Shown here: positions 6,001-38,000 of the stretch, piece by piece
Position numbering within the stretch: the stretch's first letter is position 1
How the letters are laid out: every line of letters begins with the position of its first letter
Assembly (NCBI GenBank): GCA_964016885.1
Contig: OZ024761.1
Coordinates: forward strand, 12,028,001-12,092,000
Origin: Eledone cirrhosa
Lineage: Eukaryota
Direction of reading: 5' to 3'
Length of the DNA stretch: 64,000 bases
The notes under the pieces: model-generated
Told to the model about the DNA's origin: nothing
The model's input: the letters and a program-made list of their open reading frames with translations, nothing else
Database searches by the model: none
Made by a program: the position numbers and the translations under genes

Positions 6001-9000
6001 TCTATGTCAGTGTATGTAGTAGTGTTATGTATGTCAGTGTATGTAGTAATGTTATGTATGTCAGTGTATGTAGTAGTGTTATGTATGTCAGTGTATGTAG
6101 TAGAGTTATGTATGTCAGTGTATGTAGTACTGTTATGTATGTCAGTGTATGTAGTAATGTTATGTATGTCAGTGTATGTAGTAATGTTATGTATGTCAGT
6201 GTATGTAGTAGTGTTATCTATGTCAGTGTATGTAGTAGTGTTATGTATGTCACTGTATGTAGTAGTGTTGTGTATGTAGTAGTGTTATGTATGTCAGTGT
6301 ATGTAGTAGTGTTATGTATGTCAGTGTATGTAGTAGTGTTATGTATGTCAGTGTATGTAGTAGTGTTATGTATGTCAGTGTATGTAGTAGTGTTATGTAT
6401 GTCAGTGTATGTAGTAGTGTTATGTATGTCAGTGTATGTAGTAATGTTATGTATGTCAGTGTATGTAGTAATGTTATGTATGTCAGTGTATGTAGTAATG
6501 TTATGTATGTCAGTGTATGTAGTAATGTTATGTATGTCAGTGTATGTAGTAATGTTATGTATGTCAGTGTATGTAGTAGTCTTATGTATGTCAGTGTATG
6601 TAGTAATGTTATGTATGTCAGTGTATGTAGTAATGTTATGTATGTCAGTGTATGTAGTAATGTTATGTATGTCAGTGTGTATGTAGTAGTGTTATGTATG
6701 TCAGTGTATGTAATAGTGTTATGTATGTCAGTGTATATAGTAGTGTTATGTATGTCAGTGTATGTAGTAATGTTATGTATGTCAGTGTATGTAGTAGTCT
6801 TATGTATGTCAGTGTATGTAGTAATGTTATGTATGTCAGTGTATGTAGTAATGTTATGTATGTCAGTGTATGTATGTAGTAATGTTATGTATGTCAGTGT
6901 ATGTAGTAATGTTATGTATGTCAGTGTGTATGTAGTAGTGTTATGTATGTCAGTGTATGTAATAGTGTTATGTATGTCAGTGTATATAGTAGTGTTATGT
7001 ATGTCAGTGTATGTAGTAATGTTATGTATGTCAGTGTATGTAGTAGTCTTATGTATGTCAGTGTATGTAGTAATGTTATGTATGTCAGTGTATGTAGTAA
7101 TGTTATGTATGTCAGTGTATGTATGTAGTAATGTTATGTATGTCAGTGTATGTAGTAATGTTATGTATGTCAGTGTGTATGTAGTAGTGTTATGTATGTC
7201 AGTGTATGTAATTGTGTTATGTATGTCAGTGTATATAGTAGTGTTATGTATGTCAGTGTATGTAGTAATGTTATGTATGTCAGTGTATGTAGTAGTCTTA
7301 TGTCTGTCAGTGTATGTAGTAATGTTATGTATGTCAGTGTATGTAGTAATGTTATGTATGTCAGTGTATGTAGTAATGTTATGTATGTCAGTGTGTATGT
7401 AGTAGTGTTATGTATGTCAGTGTATGTAATAGTGTTATGTATGTCAGTGTATATAGTACTGTTATGTATGTCAGTGTATGTAGTAGTGTTATGTATGTCA
7501 GTGTATGTAGTAGTGTTATGTATGTCAGTGTATGTAGTAATGTTATGTATGTCAGTGTATGTAGTAGTGTTATGTATGTCAGTGTATGTAATAGTGTTAT
7601 GTATGTCAGTGTATATAGTAGTGTTATGTATGTCAGTGTATGTAGTAGTGTTATGTATGTCAGTGTATGTAGTAGTGTTATGTATGTCAGTGTATGTAGT
7701 AATGTTATGTATGTCAGTGTATGTAGTAATGTTATGTATGTCAGTGTATATAGTAGTGTTATGTATGTCAGTGTATATAGTACTGTTATGTATGTCAGTG
7801 TATGTAGTAATGTTATGTATGTCAGTGTATGTAATAGTGTTATGTATGTCAGTGTATATAGTAATGTTATGTATGTCAGTGTATGTAGTAGTGTTATGTA
7901 TGTCAGTGTATATAGTAGTGTTATGTATGTCAGTGTATGTAGTAATGTTATGTATGTCAGTGTATGTAATAGTGTTATGTATGTCAGTGTATATAGTAGT
8001 GTTATGTATGTCAGTGTATGTAGTAGCGTTATGTATGTCAGTGTATGTAGTAGTGTTATGTATGTCAGTGTATGTAGTAGTGTTATGTATGTCAGTGTAT
8101 GTAATAGTGTTATGTATTTCAGTGTATATAGTAGTGTTATGTATGTCAGTGTATGTAGTAATGTTATGTATATCAGCGTATGTAGTAGTGTTATGTATGT
8201 CAGTGTATGTAGTAGTGTTATGTATGTCAGTGTATGTAGTACTGTTATGTATGTCAATGTATGTAGTAGTGTTATGTATGTCAGTGTATGTAGTAGTGTT
8301 ATGTATGTCAGTGTATGTAGTAGTGTTATGTATGTCAGTGTATGTAATAGTGTTATGTATGTCAGTGTATGTAGTAGTGTTATGTATGTCAGTGTATGTA
8401 ATAGTGTTATGTATGTCAGTGTATATTGTAGTGTTATGTATGTCAGTGTATATAGTAGTGTTATGTATGTCAGTATATGTAGTAATGTTATGTATGTCAG
8501 TGTATATAGTAGTGTTATGTATGTCAGTGTATGTAGTAATGTTATGTATGTCAGTGTATGTAGTAATGTTATGTATGTCAGTGTATGTAGTAGTGTTATG
8601 TATGTCAGTGTATGTAGTAATGTTATGTATGTCAGTGTATGTAGTAGTGTTATGTATGTCAGTGTATGTAGTAATGTTATGTATGTCAGTGTATGTAGTA
8701 GTGTTATGTATGTCAGTGTATGTAGTAATGTTATGTATGTCAGTGTATGTAGTAGTGTTATGTATGTCAGTGTATGTAGTAGTGTTATGTATGTCAGTGT
8801 ATGTAGTAGTGTTATGTATGTCAGTGTATGTAGTAGTGTTATGTATGTCAGTGTATATAGTAGTGTTATGTATGTCAGTGTATGTAGTAGTGTTATGTAT
8901 GTCAGTGTATGTAGTAATGTTATGTATGTCAGTGTATGTAGTAGTGTTATGTATGTCAGTGTATGTAGTAATGTTATGTATGTCAGTGTATGTAGTAGTG

Positions 9001-9824
9001 TTATATATGTCAGTGTATGTAGTAATGTTATGTATGTCAGTGTATATAGTAGTGTTATGTATGTCAGTGTATGTAGTACTGTTATGTATGTCAGTGTATG
9101 TAGTAGTGTTATGTATGTCAGTGTATGTAGTAGTGTTATGTATGTCAGTGTATGTAGTAATGTTATGTATGTCAGTGTATGTAGTAGTGTTATGTATGTC
9201 AGTGTATATAGTAGTGTTATGTATGTCAGTGTATGTAGTACTGTTATGTATGTCAGTGTATATAGTAGTGTTATGTATGTCAGTGTATGTAGTAGTGTTA
9301 TGTATGTCAGTGTATGTAGTAGTGTTATGTATGTCAGTGTATGTAGTAGTGTTATGTATGTCAGTGTATGTAGTAATGTTATCTATGTCAGTGTATGTAG
9401 TAATGTTATGTATGTCAGTGTATGTAGTAGTGTTATGTATGTCAGTGTATGTAGTAGTGTTATGTATGTCAGTGTATGTAGTAATGTTATGTATGTCAGT
9501 GTATGTCAGTGTATGTAGTAGTGTTATGTATGTCAGTGTATGTAGTAGTGTTATGTATGTCAGTGTATATAGTAGTGTTATGTATGTCAGTGTATGTAGT
9601 AGTGTTATGTATGTCAGTGTATGTAGTAGTGTTATGTATGTCAGTGTATGTAGTAGTGTTATGTATGTCAGTGTATATAGTAGTGTTATGTATGTCAGTG
9701 TATGTAGTAGTGTTATGTATGTCAGTGTATGTAGTAGTGTTATGTATGTCAGTGTATATAGTAGTGTTATGTATGTCAGTGTATGTAGTAGTGTTATGTA
9801 TGTTAGTGTATGTAATAGTGTTAT
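1..9824. repeat. 27-bp satellite, consensus GTATGTCAGTGTATGTAGTAGTGTTAT, about 360 copies, running off the left edge of the window
   Basis: Direct tandem periodicity. The 9-aa repeat MYVSVCSSV in the ORF track equals 27 nt. Variants differ by single substitutions (AGT/AAT/ACT; TGT/TAT). Confidence 0.98.
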
Positions 9825-10008
9825 GGTGGATTGGCAGTATCGGTAGAGGATCGGACGCCATGCTTTGACGCATGGAGTTACGGCCCTTGCCATTCTGAGT
9901 TCAAATCCCGTCGAGGTTAACTTTGCCTTTCATCCTTACGGGGTCGATAAAATAAAGTACCAGTAACATACTGGGGTTATTGCTGGCCTTGTGCCAATAG
10001 TAGAAACA
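9825..10008 (+). mobile_element. tRNA-derived SINE with a Nin/Deu-type central domain
   Basis: A-box-like TGGCAGTATCGG, B-box GAGTTCAAATCC and GCCTTTCATCCTTACGGGGTCGATAAAATAAAGTACCAG (Nin-domain-like). Near-identical copies lie at 31139 and 54175. Confidence 0.8.
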
Positions 10009-15366: not shown

Positions 15367-15408
<42 letters not shown>

Positions 15409-16149
15409 AGATTTGAATGGATACAGTTTAGTTGAAAGGAATTTATTGACACGTGTTTCTATAACAGTTACATAACCTAAAACAGCTATCTACAAACTTT
15501 TAGTTATGCAGACATTCAATATTTCAATGTTATTGTTTACTGTCATTTCATCAGAATAATATTACTGAGGACCTATTTAGTTTTTATAGAGAATATTAGG
15601 AGGAAGGGGTGAAGTTGTTAGAAGAATAGTTGAAGGAGTGGTTTTTCGATAGCAGTGAGAATTCTTGGTGGCAGTGATTAATTAGATTCCCATCTGTTGT
15701 TTTGACATTTTTTATAGAATATATTATTGGTTATTTTTCTAAATCTATAGAAGGATTAGAGATAGTAAAGATATGCGTGGTTGGTTTTGTGTTTGCACTT
15801 AACATTCAGACTTAAATTTTTCTTTCAAGTGTACGTATTCTTTCACCCACGCATTCACACACAAATATATTTGCACACCTCTACAAAATACATATACTCA
15901 CAATTCACATATTCATACTTACATATATATACACATGCATACACATATATATACACACATGTATTCATGTACATACATACGCGCTCATGTGTATACATTT
16001 TCATACTCAACTTATCTTTATATATACACACGTATAGACACACACATATATACATACATACTCTAGTCCATGTGTACACACATACACATACATACACATC
16101 CATATACACATACATACATACACATATATATATACATATATACACATAC

Positions 16150-16197
<48 letters not shown>

Positions 16198-16515
16198 ATA
16201 TATACACACATATACACACACACACCCATATATATATATATATATAAGCACTTTAATACATGAATACACTTACATCTAACTATACACATCAAACATATAT
16301 ATATATTTACTTATTTATATACATTTTCACATATATATACATACTTATGGACGTTTTTAGACACATTCATTATCGCATATTTGTACCTATTCTCATCAGC
16401 ATATCTTTTCATTATTAGTATGGTAATTTAAGGTTATTAATATATGTTGAAAAGAGATTGTTTTTATATTTTTCTAACTAGATTAAGGTTTATATAGTTG
16501 GGGGATGTCCCTCTT

Positions 16516-18837
16516 TTATGTAATATTCGGCTTGTAGTGGGAAAAAAGGGTTTTAGTTCTGTGACGGCAGAATAATGTTCGTTCAATTCTGTTATTCAGC
16601 AGTTTCTTCTTGTGTGTGATTATGTAATAAATCTCAAGATTACACAATTTGCAGAAATTTTGGCTCCTGGAAAAGCTTTGGGTTTTAGCTAATTTTTCCC
16701 ATTTTAGGGTAAACTTTTGATTGCTATCCCTGAGCGTCCAAGCTTTCTCTGCTAAAGTTGTTACATTTCTTTGGCTCTGGTGTTTTATTGAGTAAGAATG
16801 CCTATACAATCGAGATTTAAACGATGTTGCCGTTGATCCCACGTAATACCACTCGTTGCCTCCGGATTTAATGGTACACTTATAAATAATATTTTTTTCC
16901 AGGCAGTTATTGCCGAGGGGGCAGTTGTCAGGATAGGTGCAGTTACAGTTGTGTACGTTGGGTTTTCTCTGGAGTAGTATTGCGGACGAACTTAGGTGTG
17001 GTTTATTTATGTTCTGTAGTGTATTGTCTACTGTTTTTTGGGGGTTCTTTGTACTTAAGTTCTTAGTGTTTTCGTTTAACCTTCTAGTATTGATCTTTTT
17101 TATGTGTTGTTCAAGGTTTAACGCTGTAGAGTATGACAGTCTTATAGTGGTAGGGTTTAGGATTTTGTGGTATTTGTGTGATGTGGGAAAATGTCTTTTA
17201 ATTATTTTAAAGAAGAGTACTGGTAAATTTGTACTAATGGAGCTATTGTATTCGGGGTTATACCATAAGTACTCTTTGCATCGCTTTCTATTAGTTTTGT
17301 TTGTTGGTTTACTGGTGTGCATACTATGGTGGTAAGTGTGGTTTGGTGTTGTGTTATTATATCTACCTATGTGGGATTTATTTTGGGTGTTTTGATTGTT
17401 CCCATCTATGTACTCTATTTTGTTGAGGTAGCCTGCTTTACTAAGGGCGTTATCGTAGTACTCGGCGTGTTCCTTAAATACTTGTATGTTAGAAGATAGA
17501 CCCGAGATTCTAAGGGAAATATTTTTAGGGATAGATTTAATTATAGAGATGGGGTGGTTAGACCCAACATTTACGTATTTGAGATTTTCATTCAATTTAT
17601 GAAACGGTTTAATCAAACCAGAGTTTAAATTGAGTGTGACATCCAGGAAGTTAACTACTTTAAGGTTGTATTCATATGTTATAGTTAGTCCTATTTCGAG
17701 TAGTAGTTTTCTTATATCTTTGCGTAGTTTTTCTAGTTTTTGGTTATTAAGGTTTTTAGCTAGGAGGAGAACATCGTCGCGGTATATTCCGCCGTGGAGA
17801 TTGCTGAATTTTTCCTGGAGTCTAAAGGCGATAAATAACCCCACAATATCAGTTATTTCCGCTGAATCGTTAGAGCCCATTGTTATGTCAAAGTTAGAGG
17901 GTCTATCTTTACGTACCCAATAACTGTTCTCAAATTTGACTATAGTTTTCCTAGCTTCTAATATAATCTTAATTTCATCGTTTGTAAGGTCGGAGTTATC
18001 CTTAGCAAACTTAATGGCTCTATTCAAAGTTTCAGGTGATATCGATGAGTAATATTCATCGATATCAAACTGGATAAACTTAGATTTATTCTTATTGCTA
18101 ATGCTATTAAACCATCTTATTGCTTCTTGGGTCTTCCCCCAGAGTTTAATGTTAACCTTAGCCTTAATTTGGGGGATGATTCTATCTAAGATATATTTGC
18201 TTATTTTACCTATATCTGATTTAGAGGGGCAGATTAATCTAATTTTAGGGTCATTATCAAAGTTTACCTTGTGGTCCTTAAGATTGAAAGTGGGTACCGC
18301 CGGTAAGAGTGGTCCTGTCCTATCTTCGATTCCGAGATTTTTCACTATTTCGCATGCCCCATCATTGATGTGCTTAAGGGTTACTTCACTCGTTTTTCTA
18401 TATTTTTTATGTAATTCTTTTCGAATGAAGTTGTTGTATGTAGTGCAATCCATAGTGTACAGGTTTGATGTTTTGTCCGCTTTTACTACAATTCCTTTGG
18501 TGTTTTTAAGGTCGTCCAGTAGTTTTTTTATATCTTTCTGTAATTTGCTGTTGGTGTTGCGTCCTTTGAATTTAATTTTAAGGATTAAGTTCATAAGGTC
18601 CTGCTCAAATGCATCTAATAGTGGGTTGGTGGGTGGGTTTTTACAAGTCCTAAAACCGAATTTTTTGTTTACACCACTTTCTAATGTTGAGTTCATACGG
18701 CTTCTATCATAGTGGAGCGTTTTCCACCTGACACGTCGAATGAATTCATTAGTTTTTTGAATCATGCTCAATAAATATTCCTTTCTACCTTGGGTTGGTA
18801 TGTTTTTGAGTGACATATCCAGGTAGTGTTTTTCCAT
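16516..18837 (-). CDS. PLE reverse transcriptase plus C-terminal GIY-YIG endonuclease, 773 aa (Hydra-type)
   Basis: RT motifs KADK, QFDIDEYYSSI, ITMGS, IYRDD and NFLDV. GIY-YIG IIYKC...YYVGST..FKSR. CNC-x5-CPL-x3-C linker and terminal CKLC..E..LNNRIE..CRH. The N-terminal SLKNIP...FIRRVRWK is typical of the Hydra clade. Confidence 0.95.
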   Translation of the reverse strand: MEKHYLDMSLKNIPTQGRKEYLLSMIQKTNEFIRRVRWKTLHYDRSRMNSTLESGVNKKFGFRTCKNPPTNPLLDAFEQDLMNLILKIKFKGRNTNSKLQKDIKKLLDDLKNTKGIVVKADKTSNLYTMDCTTYNNFIRKELHKKYRKTSEVTLKHINDGACEIVKNLGIEDRTGPLLPAVPTFNLKDHKVNFDNDPKIRLICPSKSDIGKISKYILDRIIPQIKAKVNIKLWGKTQEAIRWFNSISNKNKSKFIQFDIDEYYSSISPETLNRAIKFAKDNSDLTNDEIKIILEARKTIVKFENSYWVRKDRPSNFDITMGSNDSAEITDIVGLFIAFRLQEKFSNLHGGIYRDDVLLLAKNLNNQKLEKLRKDIRKLLLEIGLTITYEYNLKVVNFLDVTLNLNSGLIKPFHKLNENLKYVNVGSNHPISIIKSIPKNISLRISGLSSNIQVFKEHAEYYDNALSKAGYLNKIEYIDGNNQNTQNKSHIGRYNNTTPNHTYHHSMHTSKPTNKTNRKRCKEYLWYNPEYNSSISTNLPVLFFKIIKRHFPTSHKYHKILNPTTIRLSYSTALNLEQHIKKINTRRLNENTKNLSTKNPQKTVDNTLQNINKPHLSSSAILLQRKPNVHNCNCTYPDNCPLGNNCLEKNIIYKCTIKSGGNEWYYVGSTATSFKSRLYRHSYSIKHQSQRNVTTLAEKAWTLRDSNQKFTLKWEKLAKTQSFSRSQNFCKLCNLEIYYIITHKKKLLNNRIERTLFCRHRTKTLFSHYKPNIT

Positions 18838-19748
18838 TGTTGTGGTTGCGTTTGCTGTGTGGGTTGCTCGACTTTACAGGAGGTAAATATACAGTTTTTT
18901 CCGTTGTGTTGTAATATAAATATTACACACAGTAGATTATCAGCTCACGTAGAGTTTGCTCGACGGTTCCAGTTGTAGTTCCAAAAGTAATCCGGAGAAA
19001 AATAGAAAGATTTGAATGGATACAGTTTAGTTGAAAGGAATTTATTGACACGTGTTTCTATAACAGTTACATAACCTAAAACAGCTATCTACAAACTTTT
19101 AGTTATGCAGACATTCAATATTTCAATGTTATTGTTTACTGTCATTTCATCAGAATAATATTACTGAGGACCTATTTAGTTTTTATAGAGAATATTAGGA
19201 GGAAGGGGTGAAGTTGTTAGAAGAATAGTTGAAGGAGTGGTTTTTCGATAGCAGTGAGAATTCTTGGTGGCAGTGATTAATTAGATTCCCATCTGTTGTT
19301 TTGACATTTTTTATAGAATATATTATTGGTTATTTTTCTAAATCTATAGAAGGATTAGAGATAGTAAAGATATGCGTGGTTGGTTTTGTGTTTGCACTTA
19401 ACATTCAGACTTAAATTTTTCTTTCAAGTGTACGTATTCTTTCACCCACGCATTCACACACAAATATATTTGCACACCTCTACAAAATACATATACTCAC
19501 AATTCACATATTCATACTTACATATATATACACATGCATACACATATATATACACACATGTATTCATGTACATACATACGCGCTCATGTGTATACATTTT
19601 CATACTCAACTTATCTTTATATATACACACGTATAGACACACACATATATACATACATACTCTAGTCCATGTGTACACACATACACATACATACACATCC
19701 ATATACACATACATACATACACATATATATATACATATATACACATAC

Positions 19749-19795
<47 letters not shown>

Positions 19796-20114
19796 CATAT
19801 ATACACACATATACACACACACACCCATATATATATATATATATAAGCACTTTAATACATGAATACACTTACATCTAACTATACACATCAAACATATATA
19901 TATATTTACTTATTTATATACATTTTCACATATATATACATACTTATGGACGTTTTTAGACACATTCATTATCGCATATTTGTACCTATTCTCATCAGCA
20001 TATCTTTTCATTATTAGTATGGTAATTTAAGGTTATTAATATATGTTGAAAAGAGATTGTTTTTATATTTTTCTAACTAGATTAAGGTTTATATAGTTGG
20101 GGGATGTCCCTCTT

Positions 20115-22436
20115 TTATGTAATATTCGGCTTGTAGTGGGAAAAAAGGGTTTTAGTTCTGTGACGGCAGAATAATGTTCGTTCAATTCTGTTATTCAGCA
20201 GTTTCTTCTTGTGTGTGATTATGTAATAAATCTCAAGATTACACAATTTGCAGAAATTTTGGCTCCTGGAAAAGCTTTGGGTTTTAGCTAATTTTTCCCA
20301 TTTTAGGGTAAACTTTTGATTGCTATCCCTGAGCGTCCAAGCTTTCTCTGCTAAAGTTGTTACATTTCTTTGGCTCTGGTGTTTTATTGAGTAAGAATGC
20401 CTATACAATCGAGATTTAAACGATGTTGCCGTTGATCCCACGTAATACCACTCGTTGCCTCCGGATTTAATGGTACACTTATAAATAATATTTTTTTCCA
20501 GGCAGTTATTGCCGAGGGGGCAGTTGTCAGGATAGGTGCAGTTACAGTTGTGTACGTTGGGTTTTCTCTGGAGTAGTATTGCGGACGAACTTAGGTGTGG
20601 TTTATTTATGTTCTGTAGTGTATTGTCTACTGTTTTTTGGGGGTTCTTTGTACTTAAGTTCTTAGTGTTTTCGTTTAACCTTCTAGTATTGATCTTTTTT
20701 ATGTGTTGTTCAAGGTTTAACGCTGTAGAGTATGACAGTCTTATAGTGGTAGGGTTTAGGATTTTGTGGTATTTGTGTGATGTGGGAAAATGTCTTTTAA
20801 TTATTTTAAAGAAGAGTACTGGTAAATTTGTACTAATGGAGCTATTGTATTCGGGGTTATACCATAAGTACTCTTTGCATCGCTTTCTATTAGTTTTGTT
20901 TGTTGGTTTACTGGTGTGCATACTATGGTGGTAAGTGTGGTTTGGTGTTGTGTTATTATATCTACCTATGTGGGATTTATTTTGGGTGTTTTGATTGTTC
21001 CCATCTATGTACTCTATTTTGTTGAGGTAGCCTGCTTTACTAAGGGCGTTATCGTAGTACTCGGCGTGTTCCTTAAATACTTGTATGTTAGAAGATAGAC
21101 CCGAGATTCTAAGGGAAATATTTTTAGGGATAGATTTAATTATAGAGATGGGGTGGTTAGACCCAACATTTACGTATTTGAGATTTTCATTCAATTTATG
21201 AAACGGTTTAATCAAACCAGAGTTTAAATTGAGTGTGACATCCAGGAAGTTAACTACTTTAAGGTTGTATTCATATGTTATAGTTAGTCCTATTTCGAGT
21301 AGTAGTTTTCTTATATCTTTGCGTAGTTTTTCTAGTTTTTGGTTATTAAGGTTTTTAGCTAGGAGGAGAACATCGTCGCGGTATATTCCGCCGTGGAGAT
21401 TGCTGAATTTTTCCTGGAGTCTAAAGGCGATAAATAACCCCACAATATCAGTTATTTCCGCTGAATCGTTAGAGCCCATTGTTATGTCAAAGTTAGAGGG
21501 TCTATCTTTACGTACCCAATAACTGTTCTCAAATTTGACTATAGTTTTCCTAGCTTCTAATATAATCTTAATTTCATCGTTTGTAAGGTCGGAGTTATCC
21601 TTAGCAAACTTAATGGCTCTATTCAAAGTTTCAGGTGATATCGATGAGTAATATTCATCGATATCAAACTGGATAAACTTAGATTTATTCTTATTGCTAA
21701 TGCTATTAAACCATCTTATTGCTTCTTGGGTCTTCCCCCAGAGTTTAATGTTAACCTTAGCCTTAATTTGGGGGATGATTCTATCTAAGATATATTTGCT
21801 TATTTTACCTATATCTGATTTAGAGGGGCAGATTAATCTAATTTTAGGGTCATTATCAAAGTTTACCTTGTGGTCCTTAAGATTGAAAGTGGGTACCGCC
21901 GGTAAGAGTGGTCCTGTCCTATCTTCGATTCCGAGATTTTTCACTATTTCGCATGCCCCATCATTGATGTGCTTAAGGGTTACTTCACTCGTTTTTCTAT
22001 ATTTTTTATGTAATTCTTTTCGAATGAAGTTGTTGTATGTAGTGCAATCCATAGTGTACAGGTTTGATGTTTTGTCCGCTTTTACTACAATTCCTTTGGT
22101 GTTTTTAAGGTCGTCCAGTAGTTTTTTTATATCTTTCTGTAATTTGCTGTTGGTGTTGCGTCCTTTGAATTTAATTTTAAGGATTAAGTTCATAAGGTCC
22201 TGCTCAAATGCATCTAATAGTGGGTTGGTGGGTGGGTTTTTACAAGTCCTAAAACCGAATTTTTTGTTTACACCACTTTCTAATGTTGAGTTCATACGGC
22301 TTCTATCATAGTGGAGCGTTTTCCACCTGACACGTCGAATGAATTCATTAGTTTTTTGAATCATGCTCAATAAATATTCCTTTCTACCTTGGGTTGGTAT
22401 GTTTTTGAGTGACATATCCAGGTAGTGTTTTTCCAT
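20115..22436 (-). CDS. PLE RT plus GIY-YIG, 773 aa, second copy
   Basis: Translation appears identical to 16516-18837. Confidence 0.95.
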   Translation of the reverse strand: MEKHYLDMSLKNIPTQGRKEYLLSMIQKTNEFIRRVRWKTLHYDRSRMNSTLESGVNKKFGFRTCKNPPTNPLLDAFEQDLMNLILKIKFKGRNTNSKLQKDIKKLLDDLKNTKGIVVKADKTSNLYTMDCTTYNNFIRKELHKKYRKTSEVTLKHINDGACEIVKNLGIEDRTGPLLPAVPTFNLKDHKVNFDNDPKIRLICPSKSDIGKISKYILDRIIPQIKAKVNIKLWGKTQEAIRWFNSISNKNKSKFIQFDIDEYYSSISPETLNRAIKFAKDNSDLTNDEIKIILEARKTIVKFENSYWVRKDRPSNFDITMGSNDSAEITDIVGLFIAFRLQEKFSNLHGGIYRDDVLLLAKNLNNQKLEKLRKDIRKLLLEIGLTITYEYNLKVVNFLDVTLNLNSGLIKPFHKLNENLKYVNVGSNHPISIIKSIPKNISLRISGLSSNIQVFKEHAEYYDNALSKAGYLNKIEYIDGNNQNTQNKSHIGRYNNTTPNHTYHHSMHTSKPTNKTNRKRCKEYLWYNPEYNSSISTNLPVLFFKIIKRHFPTSHKYHKILNPTTIRLSYSTALNLEQHIKKINTRRLNENTKNLSTKNPQKTVDNTLQNINKPHLSSSAILLQRKPNVHNCNCTYPDNCPLGNNCLEKNIIYKCTIKSGGNEWYYVGSTATSFKSRLYRHSYSIKHQSQRNVTTLAEKAWTLRDSNQKFTLKWEKLAKTQSFSRSQNFCKLCNLEIYYIITHKKKLLNNRIERTLFCRHRTKTLFSHYKPNIT

Positions 22437-23347
22437 TGTTGTGGTTGCGTTTGCTGTGTGGGTTGCTCGACTTTACAGGAGGTAAATATACAGTTTTTTC
22501 CGTTGTGTTGTAATATAAATATTACACACAGTAGATTATCAGCTCACGTAGAGTTTGCTCGACGGTTCCAGTTGTAGTTCCAAAAGTAATCCGGAGAAAA
22601 ATAGAAAGATTTGAATGGATACAGTTTAGTTGAAAGGAATTTATTGACACGTGTTTCTATAACAGTTACATAACCTAAAACAGCTATCTACAAACTTTTA
22701 GTTATGCAGACATTCAATATTTCAATGTTATTGTTTACTGTCATTTCATCAGAATAATATTACTGAGGACCTATTTAGTTTTTATAGAGAATATTAGGAG
22801 GAAGGGGTGAAGTTGTTAGAAGAATAGTTGAAGGAGTGGTTTTTCGATAGCAGTGAGAATTCTTGGTGGCAGTGATTAATTAGATTCCCATCTGTTGTTT
22901 TGACATTTTTTATAGAATATATTATTGGTTATTTTTCTAAATCTATAGAAGGATTAGAGATAGTAAAGATATGCGTGGTTGGTTTTGTGTTTGCACTTAA
23001 CATTCAGACTTAAATTTTTCTTTCAAGTGTACGTATTCTTTCACCCACGCATTCACACACAAATATATTTGCACACCTCTACAAAATACATATACTCACA
23101 ATTCACATATTCATACTTACATATATATACACATGCATACACATATATATACACACATGTATTCATGTACATACATACGCGCTCATGTGTATACATTTTC
23201 ATACTCAACTTATCTTTATATATACACACGTATAGACACACACATATATACATACATACTCTAGTCCATGTGTACACACATACACATACATACACATCCA
23301 TATACACATACATACATACACATATATATATACATATATACACATAC

Positions 23348-23394
<47 letters not shown>

Positions 23395-23673
23395 CATATA
23401 TACACACATATACACACACACACCCATATATATATATATATATAAGCATTTTAATACATGAATACACTTACATCTAACTATACACATCAAACATATATAT
23501 ATATTTACTTATTTATATACATTTTCACATATATATACATACTTATGGACGTTTTTAGACACATTCATTATCGCATATTTGTACCTATTCTCATCAGCAT
23601 ATCTTTTCATTATTAGTATGGTAATTTAAGGTTATTAATATATGTTGAAAAGAGATTGTTTTTATATTTTTCT

Positions 23674-24459
23674 AACAAAACTAATAGAAAGCGATGCAAA
23701 GAGTACTTATGGTATAACCCCGAATACAATAGCTCCATTAGTACAAATTTACCAGTACTCTTCTTTAAAATAATTAAAAGACATTTTCCCACATCACACA
23801 AATACCACAAAATCCTAAACCCTACCACTATAAGACTGTCATACTCTACAGCGTTAAACCTTGAACAACACATAAAAAAGATCAATACTAGAAGGTTAAA
23901 CGAAAACACTAAGAACTTAAGTACAAAGAACCCCCAAAAAACAGTAGACAATACACTACAGAACATAAATAAACCACACCTAAGTTCGTCCGCAATACTA
24001 CTCCAGAGAAAACCCAACGTACACAACTGTAACTGCACCTATCCTGACAACTGCCCCCTCGGCAATAACTGCCTGGAAAAAAATATTATTTATAAGTGTA
24101 CCATTAAATCCGGAGGCAACGAGTGGTATTACGTGGGATCAACGGCAACATCGTTTAAATCTCGATTGTATAGGCATTCTTACTCAATAAAACACCAGAG
24201 CCAAAGAAATGTAACAACTTTAGCAGAGAAAGCTTGGACGCTCAGGGATAGCAATCAAAAGTTTACCCTAAAATGGGAAAAATTAGCTAAAACCCAAAGC
24301 TTTTCCAGGAGCCAATATTTCTGCAAATTGTGTAATCTTGAGATTTATTACATAATCACACACAAGAAGAAACTGCTGAATAACAGAATTGAACGAACAT
24401 TATTCTGCCGTCACAGAACTAAAACCCTTTTTTCCCACTACAAGCCGAATATTACATAA
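23674..24459 (+). pseudogene. 5'-truncated PLE ORF (linker plus GIY-YIG) at the inversion junction
   Basis: Matches the C-terminal ~260 aa of the 773-aa protein, with one substitution (SQNF to SQYF). Confidence 0.92.
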
Positions 24460-24778
24460 AAGAGGGACATCCCCCAACTATATAAACCTTAATCTAGTTA
24501 GAAAAATATAAAAACAATCTCTTTTCAACATATATTAATAACCTTAAATTACCATACTAATAATGAAAAGATATGCTGATGAGAATAGGTACAAATATGC
24601 GATAATGAATGTGTCTAAAAACGTCCATAAGTATGTATATATATGTGAAAATGTATATAAATAAGTAAATATATATATATGTTTGATGTGTATAGTTAGA
24701 TGTAAGTGTATTCATGTATTAAAGTGCTTATATATATATATATATATGGGTGTGTGTGTGTATATGTGTGTATATATG

Positions 24779-24825
<47 letters not shown>

Positions 24826-25415
24826 GTATGTGTATATATGTATATATATATGTGTATGTATGTATGTGTATATGGATGTGTATGTATGTGTATGTGTGTA
24901 CACATGGACTAGAGTATGTATGTATATATGTGTGTGTCTATACGTGTGTATATATAAAGATAAGTTGAGTATGAAAATGTATACACATGAGCGCGTATGT
25001 ATGTACATGAATACATGTGTGTATATATATGTGTATGCATGTGTATATATATGTAAGTATGAATATGTGAATTGTGAGTATATGTATTTTGTAGAGGTGT
25101 GCAAATATATTTGTGTGTGAATGCGTGGGTGAAAGAATACGTACACTTGAAAGAAAAATTTAAGTCTGAATGTTAAGTGCAAACACAAAACCAACCACGC
25201 ATATCTTTACTATCTCTAATCCTTCTATAGATTTAGAAAAATAACCAATAATATATTCTATAAAAAATGTCAAAACAACAGATGGGAATCTAATTAATCA
25301 CTGCCACCAAGAATTCTCACTGCTATCGAAAAACCACTCCTTCAACTATTCTTCTAACAACTTCACCCCTTCCTCCTAATATTCTCTATAAAAACTAAAT
25401 AGGTCCTCAGTAATA

Positions 25416-25532
25416 TTATTCTGATGAAATGACAGTAAACAATAACATTGAAATATTGAATGTCTGCATAACTAAAAGTTTGTAGATAGCTGTTTTAGGT
25501 TATGTAACTGTTATAGAAACACGTGTCAATAA
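25416..25532 (+). ncRNA. Type I hammerhead ribozyme with a long branched stem II (copies: 29015-29131 +; 15443-15559, 19042-19158 and 22641-22757 -)
   Basis: Stem I TTATT/AATAA, core CTGATGA, stem II ATGACAGT/ACTGTTAT enclosing two hairpins, GAAA, palindromic stem III ACACGTGT, and GTC cleavage triplet (C25527). Confidence 0.78.
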
Positions 25533-25736
25533 ATTCCTTTCAACTAAACTGTATCCATTCAAATCTTTCTATTTTTCTCCGGATTACTTTTGGAACTACA
25601 ACTGGAACCGTCGAGCAAACTCTACGTGAGCTGATAATCTACTGTGTGTAATATTTATATTACAACACAACGGAAAAAACTGTATATTTACCTCCTGTAA
25701 AGTCGAGCAACCCACACAGCAAACGCAACCACAACA

Positions 25737-28058
25737 ATGGAAAAACACTACCTGGATATGTCACTCAAAAACATACCAACCCAAGGTAGAAAGGAATATT
25801 TATTGAGCATGATTCAAAAAACTAATGAATTCATTCGACGTGTCAGGTGGAAAACGCTCCACTATGATAGAAGCCGTATGAACTCAACATTAGAAAGTGG
25901 TGTAAACAAAAAATTCGGTTTTAGGACTTGTAAAAACCCACCCACCAACCCACTATTAGATGCATTTGAGCAGGACCTTATGAACTTAATCCTTAAAATT
26001 AAATTCAAAGGACGCAACACCAACAGCAAATTACAGAAAGATATAAAAAAACTACTGGACGACCTTAAAAACACCAAAGGAATTGTAGTAAAAGCGGACA
26101 AAACATCAAACCTGTACACTATGGATTGCACTACATACAACAACTTCATTCGAAAAGAATTACATAAAAAATATAGAAAAACGAGTGAAGTAACCCTTAA
26201 GCACATCAATGATGGGGCATGCGAAATAGTGAAAAATCTCGGAATCGAAGATAGGACAGGACCACTCTTACCGGCGGTACCCACTTTCAATCTTAAGGAC
26301 CACAAGGTAAACTTTGATAATGACCCTAAAATTAGATTAATCTGCCCCTCTAAATCAGATATAGGTAAAATAAGCAAATATATCTTAGATAGAATCATCC
26401 CCCAAATTAAGGCTAAGGTTAACATTAAACTCTGGGGGAAGACCCAAGAAGCAATAAGATGGTTTAATAGCATTAGCAATAAGAATAAATCTAAGTTTAT
26501 CCAGTTTGATATCGATGAATATTACTCATCGATATCACCTGAAACTTTGAATAGAGCCATTAAGTTTGCTAAGGATAACTCCGACCTTACAAACGATGAA
26601 ATTAAGATTATATTAGAAGCTAGGAAAACTATAGTCAAATTTGAGAACAGTTATTGGGTACGTAAAGATAGACCCTCTAACTTTGACATAACAATGGGCT
26701 CTAACGATTCAGCGGAAATAACTGATATTGTGGGGTTATTTATCGCCTTTAGACTCCAGGAAAAATTCAGCAATCTCCACGGCGGAATATACCGCGACGA
26801 TGTTCTCCTCCTAGCTAAAAACCTTAATAACCAAAAACTAGAAAAACTACGCAAAGATATAAGAAAACTACTACTCGAAATAGGACTAACTATAACATAT
26901 GAATACAACCTTAAAGTAGTTAACTTCCTGGATGTCACACTCAATTTAAACTCTGGTTTGATTAAACCGTTTCATAAATTGAATGAAAATCTCAAATACG
27001 TAAATGTTGGGTCTAACCACCCCATCTCTATAATTAAATCTATCCCTAAAAATATTTCCCTTAGAATCTCGGGTCTATCTTCTAACATACAAGTATTTAA
27101 GGAACACGCCGAGTACTACGATAACGCCCTTAGTAAAGCAGGCTACCTCAACAAAATAGAGTACATAGATGGGAACAATCAAAACACCCAAAATAAATCC
27201 CACATAGGTAGATATAATAACACAACACCAAACCACACTTACCACCATAGTATGCACACCAGTAAACCAACAAACAAAACTAATAGAAAGCGATGCAAAG
27301 AGTACTTATGGTATAACCCCGAATACAATAGCTCCATTAGTACAAATTTACCAGTACTCTTCTTTAAAATAATTAAAAGACATTTTCCCACATCACACAA
27401 ATACCACAAAATCCTAAACCCTACCACTATAAGACTGTCATACTCTACAGCGTTAAACCTTGAACAACACATAAAAAAGATCAATACTAGAAGGTTAAAC
27501 GAAAACACTAAGAACTTAAGTACAAAGAACCCCCAAAAAACAGTAGACAATACACTACAGAACATAAATAAACCACACCTAAGTTCGTCCGCAATACTAC
27601 TCCAGAGAAAACCCAACGTACACAACTGTAACTGCACCTATCCTGACAACTGCCCCCTCGGCAATAACTGCCTGGAAAAAAATATTATTTATAAGTGTAC
27701 CATTAAATCCGGAGGCAACGAGTGGTATTACGTGGGATCAACGGCAACATCGTTTAAATCTCGATTGTATAGGCATTCTTACTCAATAAAACACCAGAGC
27801 CAAAGAAATGTAACAACTTTAGCAGAGAAAGCTTGGACGCTCAGGGATAGCAATCAAAAGTTTACCCTAAAATGGGAAAAATTAGCTAAAACCCAAAGCT
27901 TTTCCAGGAGCCAAAATTTCTGCAAATTGTGTAATCTTGAGATTTATTACATAATCACACACAAGAAGAAACTGCTGAATAACAGAATTGAACGAACATT
28001 ATTCTGCCGTCACAGAACTAAAACCCTTTTTTCCCACTACAAGCCGAATATTACATAA
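25737..28058 (+). CDS. PLE RT plus GIY-YIG, 773 aa, third intact copy
   Basis: Translation appears identical to the other two copies, on the opposite strand. Confidence 0.95.
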   Translation: MEKHYLDMSLKNIPTQGRKEYLLSMIQKTNEFIRRVRWKTLHYDRSRMNSTLESGVNKKFGFRTCKNPPTNPLLDAFEQDLMNLILKIKFKGRNTNSKLQKDIKKLLDDLKNTKGIVVKADKTSNLYTMDCTTYNNFIRKELHKKYRKTSEVTLKHINDGACEIVKNLGIEDRTGPLLPAVPTFNLKDHKVNFDNDPKIRLICPSKSDIGKISKYILDRIIPQIKAKVNIKLWGKTQEAIRWFNSISNKNKSKFIQFDIDEYYSSISPETLNRAIKFAKDNSDLTNDEIKIILEARKTIVKFENSYWVRKDRPSNFDITMGSNDSAEITDIVGLFIAFRLQEKFSNLHGGIYRDDVLLLAKNLNNQKLEKLRKDIRKLLLEIGLTITYEYNLKVVNFLDVTLNLNSGLIKPFHKLNENLKYVNVGSNHPISIIKSIPKNISLRISGLSSNIQVFKEHAEYYDNALSKAGYLNKIEYIDGNNQNTQNKSHIGRYNNTTPNHTYHHSMHTSKPTNKTNRKRCKEYLWYNPEYNSSISTNLPVLFFKIIKRHFPTSHKYHKILNPTTIRLSYSTALNLEQHIKKINTRRLNENTKNLSTKNPQKTVDNTLQNINKPHLSSSAILLQRKPNVHNCNCTYPDNCPLGNNCLEKNIIYKCTIKSGGNEWYYVGSTATSFKSRLYRHSYSIKHQSQRNVTTLAEKAWTLRDSNQKFTLKWEKLAKTQSFSRSQNFCKLCNLEIYYIITHKKKLLNNRIERTLFCRHRTKTLFSHYKPNIT

Positions 28059-28377
28059 AAGAGGGACATCCCCCAACTATATAAACCTTAATCTAGTTAG
28101 AAAAATATAAAAACAATCTCTTTTCAACATATATTAATAACCTTAAATTACCATACTAATAATGAAAAGATATGCTGATGAGAATAGGTACAAATATGCG
28201 ATAATGAATGTGTCTAAAAACGTCCATAAGTATGTATATATATGTGAAAATGTATATAAATAAGTAAATATATATATATGTTTGATGTGTATAGTTAGAT
28301 GTAAGTGTATTCATGTATTAAAGTGCTTATATATATATATATATATGGGTGTGTGTGTGTATATGTGTGTATATATG

Positions 28378-28424
<47 letters not shown>

Positions 28425-29281
28425 GTATGTGTATATATGTATATATATATGTGTATGTATGTATGTGTATATGGATGTGTATGTATGTGTATGTGTGTAC
28501 ACATGGACTAGAGTATGTATGTATATATGTGTGTGTCTATACGTGTGTATATATAAAGATAAGTTGAGTATGAAAATGTATACACATGAGCGCGTATGTA
28601 TGTACATGAATACATGTGTGTATATATATGTGTATGCATGTGTATATATATGTAAGTATGAATATGTGAATTGTGAGTATATGTATTTTGTAGAGGTGTG
28701 CAAATATATTTGTGTGTGAATGCGTGGGTGAAAGAATACGTACACTTGAAAGAAAAATTTAAGTCTGAATGTTAAGTGCAAACACAAAACCAACCACGCA
28801 TATCTTTACTATCTCTAATCCTTCTATAGATTTAGAAAAATAACCAATAATATATTCTATAAAAAATGTCAAAACAACAGATGGGAATCTAATTAATCAC
28901 TGCCACCAAGAATTCTCACTGCTATCGAAAAACCACTCCTTCAACTATTCTTCTAACAACTTCACCCCTTCCTCCTAATATTCTCTATAAAAACTAAATA
29001 GGTCCTCAGTAATATTATTCTGATGAAATGACAGTAAACAATAACATTGAAATATTGAATGTCTGCATAACTAAAAGTTTGTAGATAGCTGTTTTAGGTT
29101 ATGTAACTGTTATAGAAACACGTGTCAATAAATTCCTTTCAACTAAACTGTATCCATTCAAATCTTTCTATTTTTCTCCGGATTACTTTTGGAACTACAA
29201 CTGGAACCGTCGAGCAAACTCTACGTGAGCTGATAATCTACTGTGTGTAATATTTATATTACAACACAACGGAAAAAACTG

Positions 29282-29315
<34 letters not shown>

Positions 29316-29403
29316 TATATATATATATACACACATATATAATATAATAGAATAAATATGGTTTTATAAAAAATTGTTTCCATTTATTTAATATCATTGA
29401 TAT

Positions 29404-29484
<81 letters not shown>

Positions 29485-34789: not shown

Positions 34790-35895
34790 GGATAATTATG
34801 TAAGATAAAGCCTTTACTGTGAAAATACAAGAGTAAGAGTAATGTAAATGTTATGTGAGATAAAGCCTTTACTGTGAAAATACAATAGTATATATAGAGT
34901 AATGTAAATGTTATGTGAGATATTATATGAGGTAAAGACTTTACTGTTAAAATATACAATAGTATATATAGAGTAATGTAAATGTTATGTGAGGTATTAT
35001 GTGAGGTAAAGCCTTTACTGTGAAAATACAATAGTATATATAGAGTAATGTAAATGTTATGTGAGGTATTATGTGAGGTAAAGTCTTTACTGTGAAAATA
35101 CAATAGTATATATAGAGTAATGTAAATGTTATGTGAGGTATTATGTGAGGTAAAGTCTTTACTGTGAAAATACAATAGTATATATAGAGTAATGTAAATG
35201 TTATGTGAGATATTATGTGAGGTAAAGCCTTTACTGTGAAAATACAATAGTATATATAGAGTAATGTAAATGTTATGTGAGATATTATGTGAAGTAAAGC
35301 CTTTACTGTGACAATACAATAGTATATATAGAGTAATGTAAATGTTATGTGAGATATTATGTGAGGTAAAGCCTTTACTGTGAAAATACAATAGTATATA
35401 TAGAGTAATGTAAATGTTATGTGAGATATTATGTGAGGTAAAGCCTTTACTGTGACAATACAATAGTATATATAGAGTAATGTAAATGTTATGTGAGATA
35501 TTATGTGAGGTAGAGCCTTTACTGTGAAAATACAATAGTATATATAGAGTAATGTAAATGTTATGTGAGGTAAAGCCTTTACTGTGACAATACAATAGTA
35601 TATATAGAGTAATGTAAATGTTATGTGAGATATTATGTGAGGTAAAGCCTTTACTGTGACAATACAATAGTATATATAGAGTAATGTAAATGTTATGTGA
35701 GATATTATGTGAGGTAGAGCCTTTACTGTGAAAATACAATAGTATATATAGAGTAATGTAAATGTTATGTGAGGTAAAGCCTTTACTGTGACAATACAAT
35801 AGTATATATAGAGTAATGTAAATGTTATGTGAGATATTATGTGAGGTAAAGTCTTTACTGTGAAAATACAGTAGTATATATAGAGTAATGTAAAT
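34790..35895. repeat. Minisatellite with 72-bp units and 60-bp variants lacking one internal 12-mer
   Basis: AAAGCCTTTACTGTGAAAATACAATAGTATATATAGAGTAATGTAAATGTTATGTGAG[ATATTATGTGAG]GT repeated. The ORF track shows 24-aa and 20-aa periods. Confidence 0.93.
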
Positions 35896-36435
35896 GGTAA
35901 AGGGTTAAACAAAAATTACTCAAAAATACATTAGTTTATCTATCACTGTTTCTAGCAGAACCCCTAGGGACTTTGTGTGGAGCCCTGGGGTTCTGGGGAA
36001 CATCATTTCCATTTAGCATCAATTAGACGGGTCTTCCACGCCGGGAGACAAGTCTGGCCATGGTTGGCCATGTGTCACACCTTGCTCCGGTGAGGACTGT
36101 AAATCAGGCTGGGGGAGTATTTTACAGCTGGATGCCCCTTCCCAGTTCAGAAATGCTGGGCCAAACCTTTCAGAAAGAGGATAACCTAGCTTGTGTCTGG
36201 AATCAATGCTATCAGAAAATTGGATGTGTTTGTTGTACTACAACAAAAACAAACAAGAAATAATAGTATTAGAATGAAAAATTACACACTTCGATATCTT
36301 GTGCTGGCTTTGATGAATCTAGTTTTAAAACAGCTGTTAAAGTTTGTCTTCTCTATGAAGCAGGTGTATGTGAGATAGAAATCACATAAATATGATATAT
36401 ATATACACACATGCACATATATATATATATACACC

Positions 36436-36672: not shown

Positions 36673-37224
36673 CATATATACATACAAATTTTAGTACAGC
36701 ATTAACGAAGCTTCAGGCAGTGGCTAAGCTAACGAATGCAAATTCGGAATGTAGCTTTAGCACTCGATGGAGAATAGTACCCCAGAGTTATAACAATACG
36801 TTTAGACAGCTTTGCAAATCAAATATAGCGATTGGCAGTCCAGCCACATTGCCATAGCAACGAAAATGGTTGGACTCAGGAAAAGATTTTATATACACAC
36901 ACACACACACACACACAGAGACACCCACACACATACAGACATGTATATATATATTCAAAAAGTGATTTTTAATACAACATAACCAATAGTAATACTACTA
37001 ATAAAATAAGTATGTTGTTGTATTTGTTATAAAACATTGTTTTCTAAAAGTCTCTCCTCTCTCCCTACAGAAATAATATGAAAGGTAACTTGGATTATTC
37101 AAATAATATATTGTTTCTTGTACTAAAGTTTTCAAAAGTTGTTAGAAAGAAAAGTGCAAGGTTTAAAGTCACATCAGTTTCTAGTCTCCTGAGAAATAAG
37201 TTAGTGTTTAATACTACTGTAAAT

Positions 37225-38000
37225 GTGTTAGGTATAGTTTGTTGTTTAACTGGAGGTCAGCTCTCCACCAGATGTGTTAGGTATAGTTTGTTGTTTAACT
37301 GGAGGTCAGCTCTCCACCAGATGTGTTGGGTATAGTTTGTTGTTTAACTGGAGGTCAGCTCTCCACCAGATGTGTTAGGTATAGTTTGTTGTTTAACTGG
37401 AGGTCAGCTCTCCACCAGATGTGTTGGGTATAGTTTGTTGTTTAACTGGAGGTCAGCTCTCCACCAGATGTGTTAGGTATAGTTTGTTGTTTAACTGGAG
37501 GTCAGCTCTCCACCAGATGTGTTGGGTATAGTTTGTTGTTTAACTGAAGGTCAGCTCTCCACCAGATGTGTTAGGTATAGTTTGTTGTTTAACTGGAGGT
37601 CAGCTCTCCACCAGATGTGTTGGGTATAGTTTGTTGTTTAACTGGAGGTCAGCTCTCCACCAGATGTGTTGGGTATAGTTTGTTGTTTAACTGGAGGTCA
37701 GCTCTCCACCAGATGTGTTGGGTATAGTTTGTTGTTTAACTGGAGGTCAGCTCTCCACCAGATGTGTTGGGTATAGTTTGTTGTTTAACTGGAGGTCAGC
37801 TCTCCACCAGATGTGTTGGGTATAGTTTGTTGTTCAACTGGAGGCCAGTTCTCCATCAGATGTGATGGGTATAGTTTGTTGTTCAACTGGAGGTCAGCTC
37901 TCCACCAGATGTGTTAGGTATAGTTTGTTGTTCAACTGGAGGTCAGCTCTCCACCAGATGTGTTGGATATAGTTTCTGGTTCAACTGGAGGTCAGCTCTC
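37225..38000. repeat. 49-bp minisatellite, about 16 copies
   Basis: GTGTTrGGTATAGTTTGTTGTTTAACTGGAGGTCAGCTCTCCACCAGAT in tandem. Confidence 0.95.

Follow-up and report, generated by a model that had tools for sequence, protein, structure and literature searches.

How does a retroelement come to lie in a genome as two inverted arms, each holding more than one head-to-tail unit of the element and each ending in the same simple repeat? The question is posed by a Penelope-like insertion at positions 15403-29286 of a 64,000-nucleotide (nt) stretch of the Eledone cirrhosa genome (assembly GCA_964016885.1, contig OZ024761.1, 12,028,001 to 12,092,000, forward strand), hereafter the window. Comparison of this locus with its relatives in the same assembly points to an answer in two parts, which we take together to be the best explanation, at a probability of roughly 65%: the two ends of a cut (TA)n target would each prime complementary DNA (cDNA) synthesis at one of two fixed sites in the element's RNA, and the extra units would be copied from a monomeric template.

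Structure of the insertion

Unit coordinates (u) are counted from window position 24460, the first base past the stop of the open reading frame (ORF), as u1. Exact comparison of the units bears out the map given in a preliminary description of the window, in which a left and a right arm built of 3599-base-pair (bp) units meet at a short AAC junction with few differences between units: the period is 3599 bp, with zero indels, throughout both arms. The unit differences amount to three single substitutions (16189, 23449 and 24316), each in one copy alone, the second of which had been placed near 23448. The three ORFs described as intact are identical, each encoding 773 amino acids from the ATG. 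Both outer ends had been described as joined to (TA)n at TAT; this holds for the left end, while the right end shares five nucleotides, TATAT, with its target. The outer ends lie 45 nt (left) and 160 nt (right) beyond a predicted hammerhead ribozyme cut, which each arm, as had been noted, crosses more than once. The features of the insertion are:

15403-23676, minus strand: left arm, 8,274 nt (2.30 units), ending 3' at site A (u1113), where TAT is common to element and target
23674-29286, plus strand: right arm, 5,613 nt (1.56 units), with its 3' end at site B (u1228), sharing TATAT with the target
23674-23676: head-to-head junction of the truncated 5' ends, a 3-nt microhomology (AAC) joining left u38 to right u2814
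25737-28058, plus strand: intact ORF of 773 amino acids for a reverse transcriptase (RT) with a putative C-terminal GIY-YIG-type endonuclease and Hydra-clade motifs
20115-22436, minus strand: intact copy of the ORF, identical protein
16516-18837, minus strand: intact copy of the ORF, identical protein
23674-24459, plus strand: 5'-truncated ORF copy, holding the private substitution at 24316
24631-25229, plus strand: 599-nt microsatellite-filled intron-like segment (GTATGT ... CTAAT ... TAG), present in every copy, five in the insertion
25416-25532, plus strand: predicted hammerhead of type I, its stem II long and its stem III palindromic, with cleavage predicted after 25527 (u1068)
29015-29131, plus strand, and 15443-15559, 19042-19158 and 22641-22757, minus strand: further predicted hammerhead copies
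25570-25572, plus strand: priming site A, TAT (u1111-1113), read through here and serving as the outer end at 15403-15405
25683-25687, plus strand: priming site B, TATAT (u1224-1228), read through here and serving as the outer end at 29282-29286
25573-25687, plus strand: the 'tail' of about 115 nt between sites A and B, a concept taken from PMC11167929
15050-15405: target flank on the left, (TA)n/(CA)n, with nothing but TA beside the element
29282-29484: right (TA)n target flank

The intron-like segment measures 599 nt in all five window copies, as against 325-711 nt across 176 family copies, and by this measure the insertion is very young. Since the left flank is pure TA next to the element, a target duplication is unreadable here. 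The locus is real as far as one assembly shows, and its parts are known Penelope-like features.

Two fixed end sites, one for each arm

The family comprises about 1,500 insertions in the 3.0-Gb genome. We fetched 181 stretches: the 36 best full-length matches (biased to long arms), extensions, hand-picked loci and three end-based sets, namely 40 A ends on contig 1, taken from the top of a list of 100 (length-unbiased), nine of 36 unpaired B ends and 40 of 151 read-through sites. Haplotype, three-copy, target duplication and outer-end tests were run on 143 merged stretches, a set without L162-L181 and eight superseded or unmerged stretches. Here 157 of the 158 outer ends adjoining a TA run fall at A or B, the odd one lying inside the element's own microsatellite segment. 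This mapping of 3' ends over the family, proposed in the preliminary description, refines its view that the arms were primed at different positions: there are two positions, they are fixed family-wide, and each serves one arm. Indeed, all 66 double-armed insertions with both ends visible carry one A and one B end, and on contig 1 up to 178 Mb the 100 A and 91 B ends form 55 outward-facing A-B pairs with no A-A and no B-B pair, for which the probability under free site choice is 2e-17.

Among the 40 length-unbiased A loci an inverted B arm is present in 29 and the arm is single in 11; single B arms also occur, at five of the nine unpaired B ends. Double arms are the normal, majority product of the family. 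The window locus had been put forward as unusually informative for its multi-unit arms on both sides, but it is no special event: it lies in the long tail of the family's usual output, in which other arms of comparable length measure 9.9, 8.4 and 8.3 kb. Exact joins number 1573 at A and 1310 (147+1163) at B genome-wide, and B is read through at only 187 places (36+151); with five mini-unit matches removed this leaves 182 of 2883 arms, so that about 6% of arms exceed a whole unit.

A target duplication is exact and readable in seven of 65 loci, at 16 nt in six and 18 nt in one. By eye four more loci fit 16 nt with one mismatch, L075 does not, and the remainder are pure TA. As the letters of the duplication are partly common to the element, we infer a true stagger of 10-15 nt. 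The inner junctions (n=56, ten loci with broken alignment chains excluded) show microhomology in 28 cases, filler in 22 and a blunt join in six. Fillers of 16-67 nt were seen in L009, L012, L016, L024, L028 and L042, several copied from nearby element sequence and some repeated (three times in L024), which points to stuttering of the RT, or repair synthesis, where the cDNAs end. One short A+B insertion is found twice, 6.9 kb apart, at G000:C1:126842072-126849351, probably through later segmental duplication. The right flank of the window insertion (29335-29400) resembles a small repeat that also surrounds the L176 insertion, so that (TA)n tracts lying inside a different repeat family may often be targeted.

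Assembly of near-identical repeats and palindromes is difficult, and the structure is known here from an assembly alone, which raises the question of an assembly artefact, or of later unequal crossing-over or nested insertions. We regard this as extremely improbable: the same A+B anatomy recurs with distinct inner junctions at 66 loci, target duplications are found, and in the window the units carry three private substitutions and the flanks differ on the two sides. Nor can crossing-over place one new junction in both inverted arms, an arrangement seen in the arrays described below.

A probable single template and two primers

At 43 polymorphic sites the two arms of one insertion mismatch in only 1 of 952 comparisons, near a junction, against 15,668 of 56,356 (28%) between insertions. 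Their lengths, by comparison, are uncorrelated (rho -0.11, n=29 pairs). In five of the 29 pairs the B arm lies wholly within the tail, with no overlap with the start of the A arm, and the arms of L107 have no sequence in common. Together these data agree with priming at two places on a single RNA, or on transcripts that share a donor. The uncorrelated lengths and tail-only B arms argue for independent priming of the two arms, in agreement with the earlier proposal that both DNA ends primed cDNA synthesis and that the arms meet at their truncated 5' ends. Paired two-site priming is, in our assessment, very likely.

Inverted arms could also arise if one cDNA folded back and copied itself, as in the self-priming model of PMC3846280, and the palindrome later lost its centre. 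The shared haplotype of the arms agrees with such a course, and four of the 29 pairs are near-perfect palindromes, with more in the hand-picked loci L174, L175 and L177. The independence of the arm lengths, the tail-only B arms and the lack of common sequence in L107 nevertheless run against it, as do a template junction in L096 that is present in one arm only and the finding that no error is mirrored in both outer copies. Nor does fold-back account for the constant use of the remaining fixed site at the second end, and we consider this model highly improbable.

The template of the extra units

The preliminary description had offered a circular monomer or an uncleaved multimeric transcript as template for the extra units, and unit divergence as a check. 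In 28 insertions with at least three copies of a region, 17,648 sites (microsatellite left out) hold 32 differences, all of them single-copy: 11 in the outer A copy, 11 in the outer B copy and 10 in inner copies. A rare allele in both outer copies but not the common inner copy, which would be the mark of a linear multi-unit donor, was found in none of the 28, and 16 rare alleles are carried by all copies of their insertion. The pattern speaks against an inherited multimer; the extra units fit a monomeric template, circular or re-entered, better. That the template was a monomer is likely.

PMC11167929 instead favours a multi-unit donor that already exists and is transcribed at length by read-through, each arm being a simple copy of that transcript. 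Multi-unit copies do exist, with arms up to 9.9 kb, and read-through of the cut site is universal. Yet the 17,648 sites hold no donor-inherited unit differences, the 44 best matches include no other near-identical copy as long as the window left arm, and the rare ORF allele of the window (u1756) recurs at two further loci whose identity is just 97-99%. A donor of this kind also cannot create repeats of a new junction, and arrays could only shrink. We hold it to be very unlikely for this family.

New junctions are exactly what two short arrays contain, and as the window's u1756 allele is also found at two diverged loci it is weaker evidence than the first of these. L079 (G000:C3:218052258-218054083; L079 2258-4083) is a double-armed A+B array of a 321-nt unit (u1048-1369) and supplies the strongest evidence for a monomer template. 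Six copies of its junction are present, three in either arm, and a genome-wide search, made for the L079 junction only, met it at no other place in the 3-Gb assembly; the array shows two single C-to-T differences. L098 (4399-5292, G000:C2), likewise double-armed, is built of 377-nt units (u1045-1421), and its two arms share one blunt junction that lies a single base out of register with the microhomology. In these arrays A and B are plainly internal sites, and the simplest account of identical novel junctions in separately primed arms is a closed circle. L079 resembles a satellite of retrozyme size that has only just arisen, and it contains no complete ribozyme. Back-splicing was considered as a source of the seams and rejected, since L079 and L098 lack GT/AG and the L096 junction has an extra base.

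The same monomer signature would be left without a covalent circle by a linear RNA running from about u1038 to past site B of the next unit and re-entered through terminal redundancy or end-to-end jumps. The jump in L096, with its extra base in one arm only, is in keeping with this, as are the clustering of the seams at u1038-1048 and recurring 5' ends at u1037-1039 among hand-picked loci. Independent jumps should vary, however, and the junctions in the separately primed arms are identical in six of six cases in L079 and two of two in L098, making linear re-entry rather unlikely as the whole explanation.

Several observations weigh against paired priming on a monomer template. All evidence comes from one assembly, from which the source array of L079 and L098 could be missing, and the three-copy test is weaker if donor copies transposed very young. 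In one arm of L096 (6433-6730), but not the other, a one-off same-direction jump leads from u1387 to u1038 and adds a base; L156 (868-1708) likewise has a single same-direction jump, from u1537 to u896, in just one arm. 5' ends at u1037-1039 recur in nine of 18 junction loci, a hand-picked and biased set; together with the L096 jump they are signs that linear templates and jumps also occur. Stops within the tail are found in 15 of 40 second-pass arms versus 5 of 27 first-pass arms, an excess that does not amount to a significant collision signal (p=0.11). Both arms stop no more than 12 nt apart in four of 29 pairs (0.2 expected), and those of L160 and L161 stop at the same template position a full unit apart; such matching stops fit run-off at a shared RNA end or fold-back. 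Finally, a shared haplotype is expected of one RNA molecule and of two transcripts of one source locus alike.

The recurring 5' end corresponds to window 25496-25498 and was seen in arms of L164-L170, L174 and L178; it may mark where transcription begins, or a point in the long stem at which the RT stops. Junction pattern matches number 42 near u1036-1047, 37 near u1068-1079 and four near u884-895, but, given the abundance of short arms and the unequal polymorphism of the cores, the three counts are not directly comparable, and the u1037-1039 peak is only a hint.

The hammerhead motif

One hammerhead had been described per unit. By manual prediction the core boxes and stems are present: stem I spans 5 bp, stem II is long and stem III palindromic, as in other Penelope-like hammerheads, and the boxes are intact in 243 of 250 copies; Rfam, however, gave no hammerhead match at the gathering score or at E<=10, only microsatellite-driven microRNA matches. 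A second, degenerate hammerhead-like motif lies at window 24571-24632, or 24576-24627 if delimited more narrowly (CUGAUGAG, with GAUA for GAAA, and GUC), directly before the intron-like donor site.

The preliminary description had the hammerhead cut the precursor once per unit, the 3599-nt monomer being ligated at GUC^AAUAA and both primers rolling on the resulting circle, much as RNA circles are proposed in PMC4209133. Every arm does read seamlessly across the cut site, the boxes are well kept and the template behaves as a monomer. With both priming sites just 3' of the cut, a circle that includes the two could come even from a donor ending at A, and a full-length circle ligated at the cut, being seamless, would leave no visible seam. 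The seams that are visible, however, lie at u1048 (L079), u1045 (L098), u1038 (L096) and u896 (L156), none of them at the cut (u1068/u1069), and the 321- and 377-nt mini-units lack the CUGAUGA box (u962) and thus a complete type I hammerhead per repeat. 5' ends do not pile up at the cut, where one of 40 second-pass arms ends (L117/L159, u1070). The first stem-II pair (positions 10.1/11.1) reads A.A in the young family, the older copy L156 alone having A-U, and the predicted cleaving fold lies 4.6 kcal/mol above the minimum. In the experiments described in PMC11167929, moreover, ribozyme mutants left in vitro insertion unaffected. On balance a ribozyme-made 3599-nt circle appears unlikely. The hammerhead may help to make full-length circles.

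The element and its protein

The element is a Hydra-clade Penelope-like retrotransposon and not a virus, an assignment made by motifs rather than by an RT tree, with criteria taken from PMC8557442. A Pfam search of the 773-residue protein found no family and a PDB sequence search was likewise unhelpful. The RT motif YRDD stands at residue 352, and a structure model of the protein (predicted local distance difference test score 89.9) retrieves telomerase RTs as eight of its ten best Foldseek matches (best E 4.5e-9). Towards the C-terminus, IIY...YVG strands are followed by helices bearing R, E and N in both sequence and model; in the absence of a profile or fold match for the domain alone, these motifs mark a putative GIY-YIG-type endonuclease in the same ORF. 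The Hydra-clade residues comprise RWK at 37 and DKT at 121 (DKG changed to DKT), with GxKF/Y absent, a CxCX5C linker at 631, CxxC at 729 and CxH at 757, no CX2-5CxxC/CCHH, and one cysteine between the two strands. (TA)n targets, partial tandems forming pseudo-long terminal repeats (pseudo-LTRs), an inverted 5'-truncated copy and a tail at one end are all present.

The family is like the Hydra-clade elements of PMC8557442 in its residues (RWK, DKT, CxCX5C, CxxC, CxH, no CCHH) and putative C-terminal endonuclease, and equally in its (TA)n targets, its tandem and inverted insertions and its tail at one end only. It differs from them in a unit of 3.6 kb versus less than 3 kb, in a tail of about 115 nt versus 30-40, in a hammerhead that is non-canonical in the young subfamily, and in that the tail tracks strict use of one site by each arm.

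The protein has 295 relatives at 31-43% identity. A dimer prediction for residues 1-490 scored 0.00, which counts neither way. No spliced copy of the intron-like segment (GT...AG, branch-like CTAAT) was found among the fetched loci, and the segment is kept in 176 copies. Close relatives of window 25210-28230 occur in sequencing runs under several different organism codes (runs X1-X10); contigs from four runs show close relatives of the element, and two runs have a contig that stops at site A, but these contigs do not reach across the locus. None of the runs listed as holding the element was an RNA run, which says nothing either way on expression. Elsewhere in the window lie a 27-bp repeat array at 1-9825 (364 copies, 93% matches), running off the window start, and minisatellites at 34796-35939 (72-bp unit) and 37223-38000 (49-bp unit).

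Proposed mechanism

In the mechanism that we propose, unspliced RNA would be bound by the element's protein, probably in two copies, and the (TA)n target cut on both strands about 10-15 nt apart. One 3' end would be set at A and the other at B, both internal, by only 2-5 nt of TA pairing, and both cDNAs would extend the same way along the RNA and stop independently, with about 6% passing a whole unit. The unit boundary would be passed via a closed RNA circle, to which we lean slightly, or by exact re-entry into a linear RNA with redundant ends. The cDNAs would then be joined head to head at their 3' ends, through microhomology, bluntly or with a short filler, after which each joined cDNA could template the second strand of the other.

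A more specific form of this mechanism is a dedicated paired integration of Penelope-like elements, in which a two-enzyme complex would make the staggered cut and place one end at each fixed site of a single circular RNA, with both enzymes rolling. We advance it tentatively, at somewhat less than even odds. If true, the paired reaction would explain the tail, the inverted copy, the regeneration of pseudo-LTRs and second-strand synthesis, and retrozyme-like arrays would be born from any small circle with both sites, ribozyme or not.

Relation to known systems and implications

In LINE-1 twin priming, too, both target ends prime, and microhomology marks the head-to-head joint between the truncated 5' ends of the arms; the annealing site of the second primer varies there and lies upstream of the first cDNA, leaving arms without overlap. 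The Eledone family resembles LINE-1 in the first respects, with both target ends probably priming and 5'-truncated arms joined by microhomology, but differs in that both of its sites are fixed, its arms have kilobases of overlap and double-armed insertions predominate.

Closer parallels come from other Penelope-like elements. For the green anole element Poseidon in vitro, PMC11167929 (Frangieh et al. 2024) reports two internal start sites bounding the tail, an AT-rich target with both strands cut and extended, a predicted dimer and a dispensable ribozyme. The two start sites, the AT-rich target and the cutting and extension of both strands are like what we find or propose here, whereas for Poseidon no difference in start site between strands was seen and a multi-copy mRNA is favoured; here each site is used once and the units are monomer-like. 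Craig et al. 2021 (PMC8557442) put the tail down to endonuclease resolution in Hydra-clade elements, and PMC3846280 describes a tail on one inverted pseudo-LTR and 8-10-bp duplications alongside its self-priming model. Cervera and De la Pena 2014 (PMC4209133) proposed RNA circles as templates for more-than-unit copying, and in such copying, which we propose here, and in its head-to-tail arrays the family is like the circular-template models (PMC4209133, PMC7229834, bioRxiv 10.64898/2026.07.22.740005). L079 and L098 in particular resemble newborn retrozyme-sized arrays from the pseudo-LTR region (PMC7229834, bioRxiv 10.64898/2026.07.22.740005); unlike non-LTR retrozymes as presented there, their mini-units are not closed at the hammerhead cut, hold no complete ribozyme and are double-armed with A+B ends.

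Circles and two start sites are already published; the family-wide pairing rule and the natural mini-unit arrays appear to be new. Neither the strict rule of one site per arm nor double-armed mini-unit arrays were found in a literature search that had older Penelope papers and supplements outside its scope. The regeneration of pseudo-LTRs, tandem and inverted insertions and the one-sided tail are called unexplained in PMC2377424 and PMC8557442. For these features the family offers clear rules that experiments can test: two fixed sites, each used a single time, a target duplication near 16 nt, and one template per insertion. L079 and L098 are natural 321- and 377-nt substrates with everything needed in cis, and the intact, very young 773-residue protein makes the choice between circle and jump, and the role of the ribozyme, open to direct in vitro test. 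The findings suggest a route by which retrozyme-like satellites originate, and bear on repeat addition by the closest relatives of telomerase.

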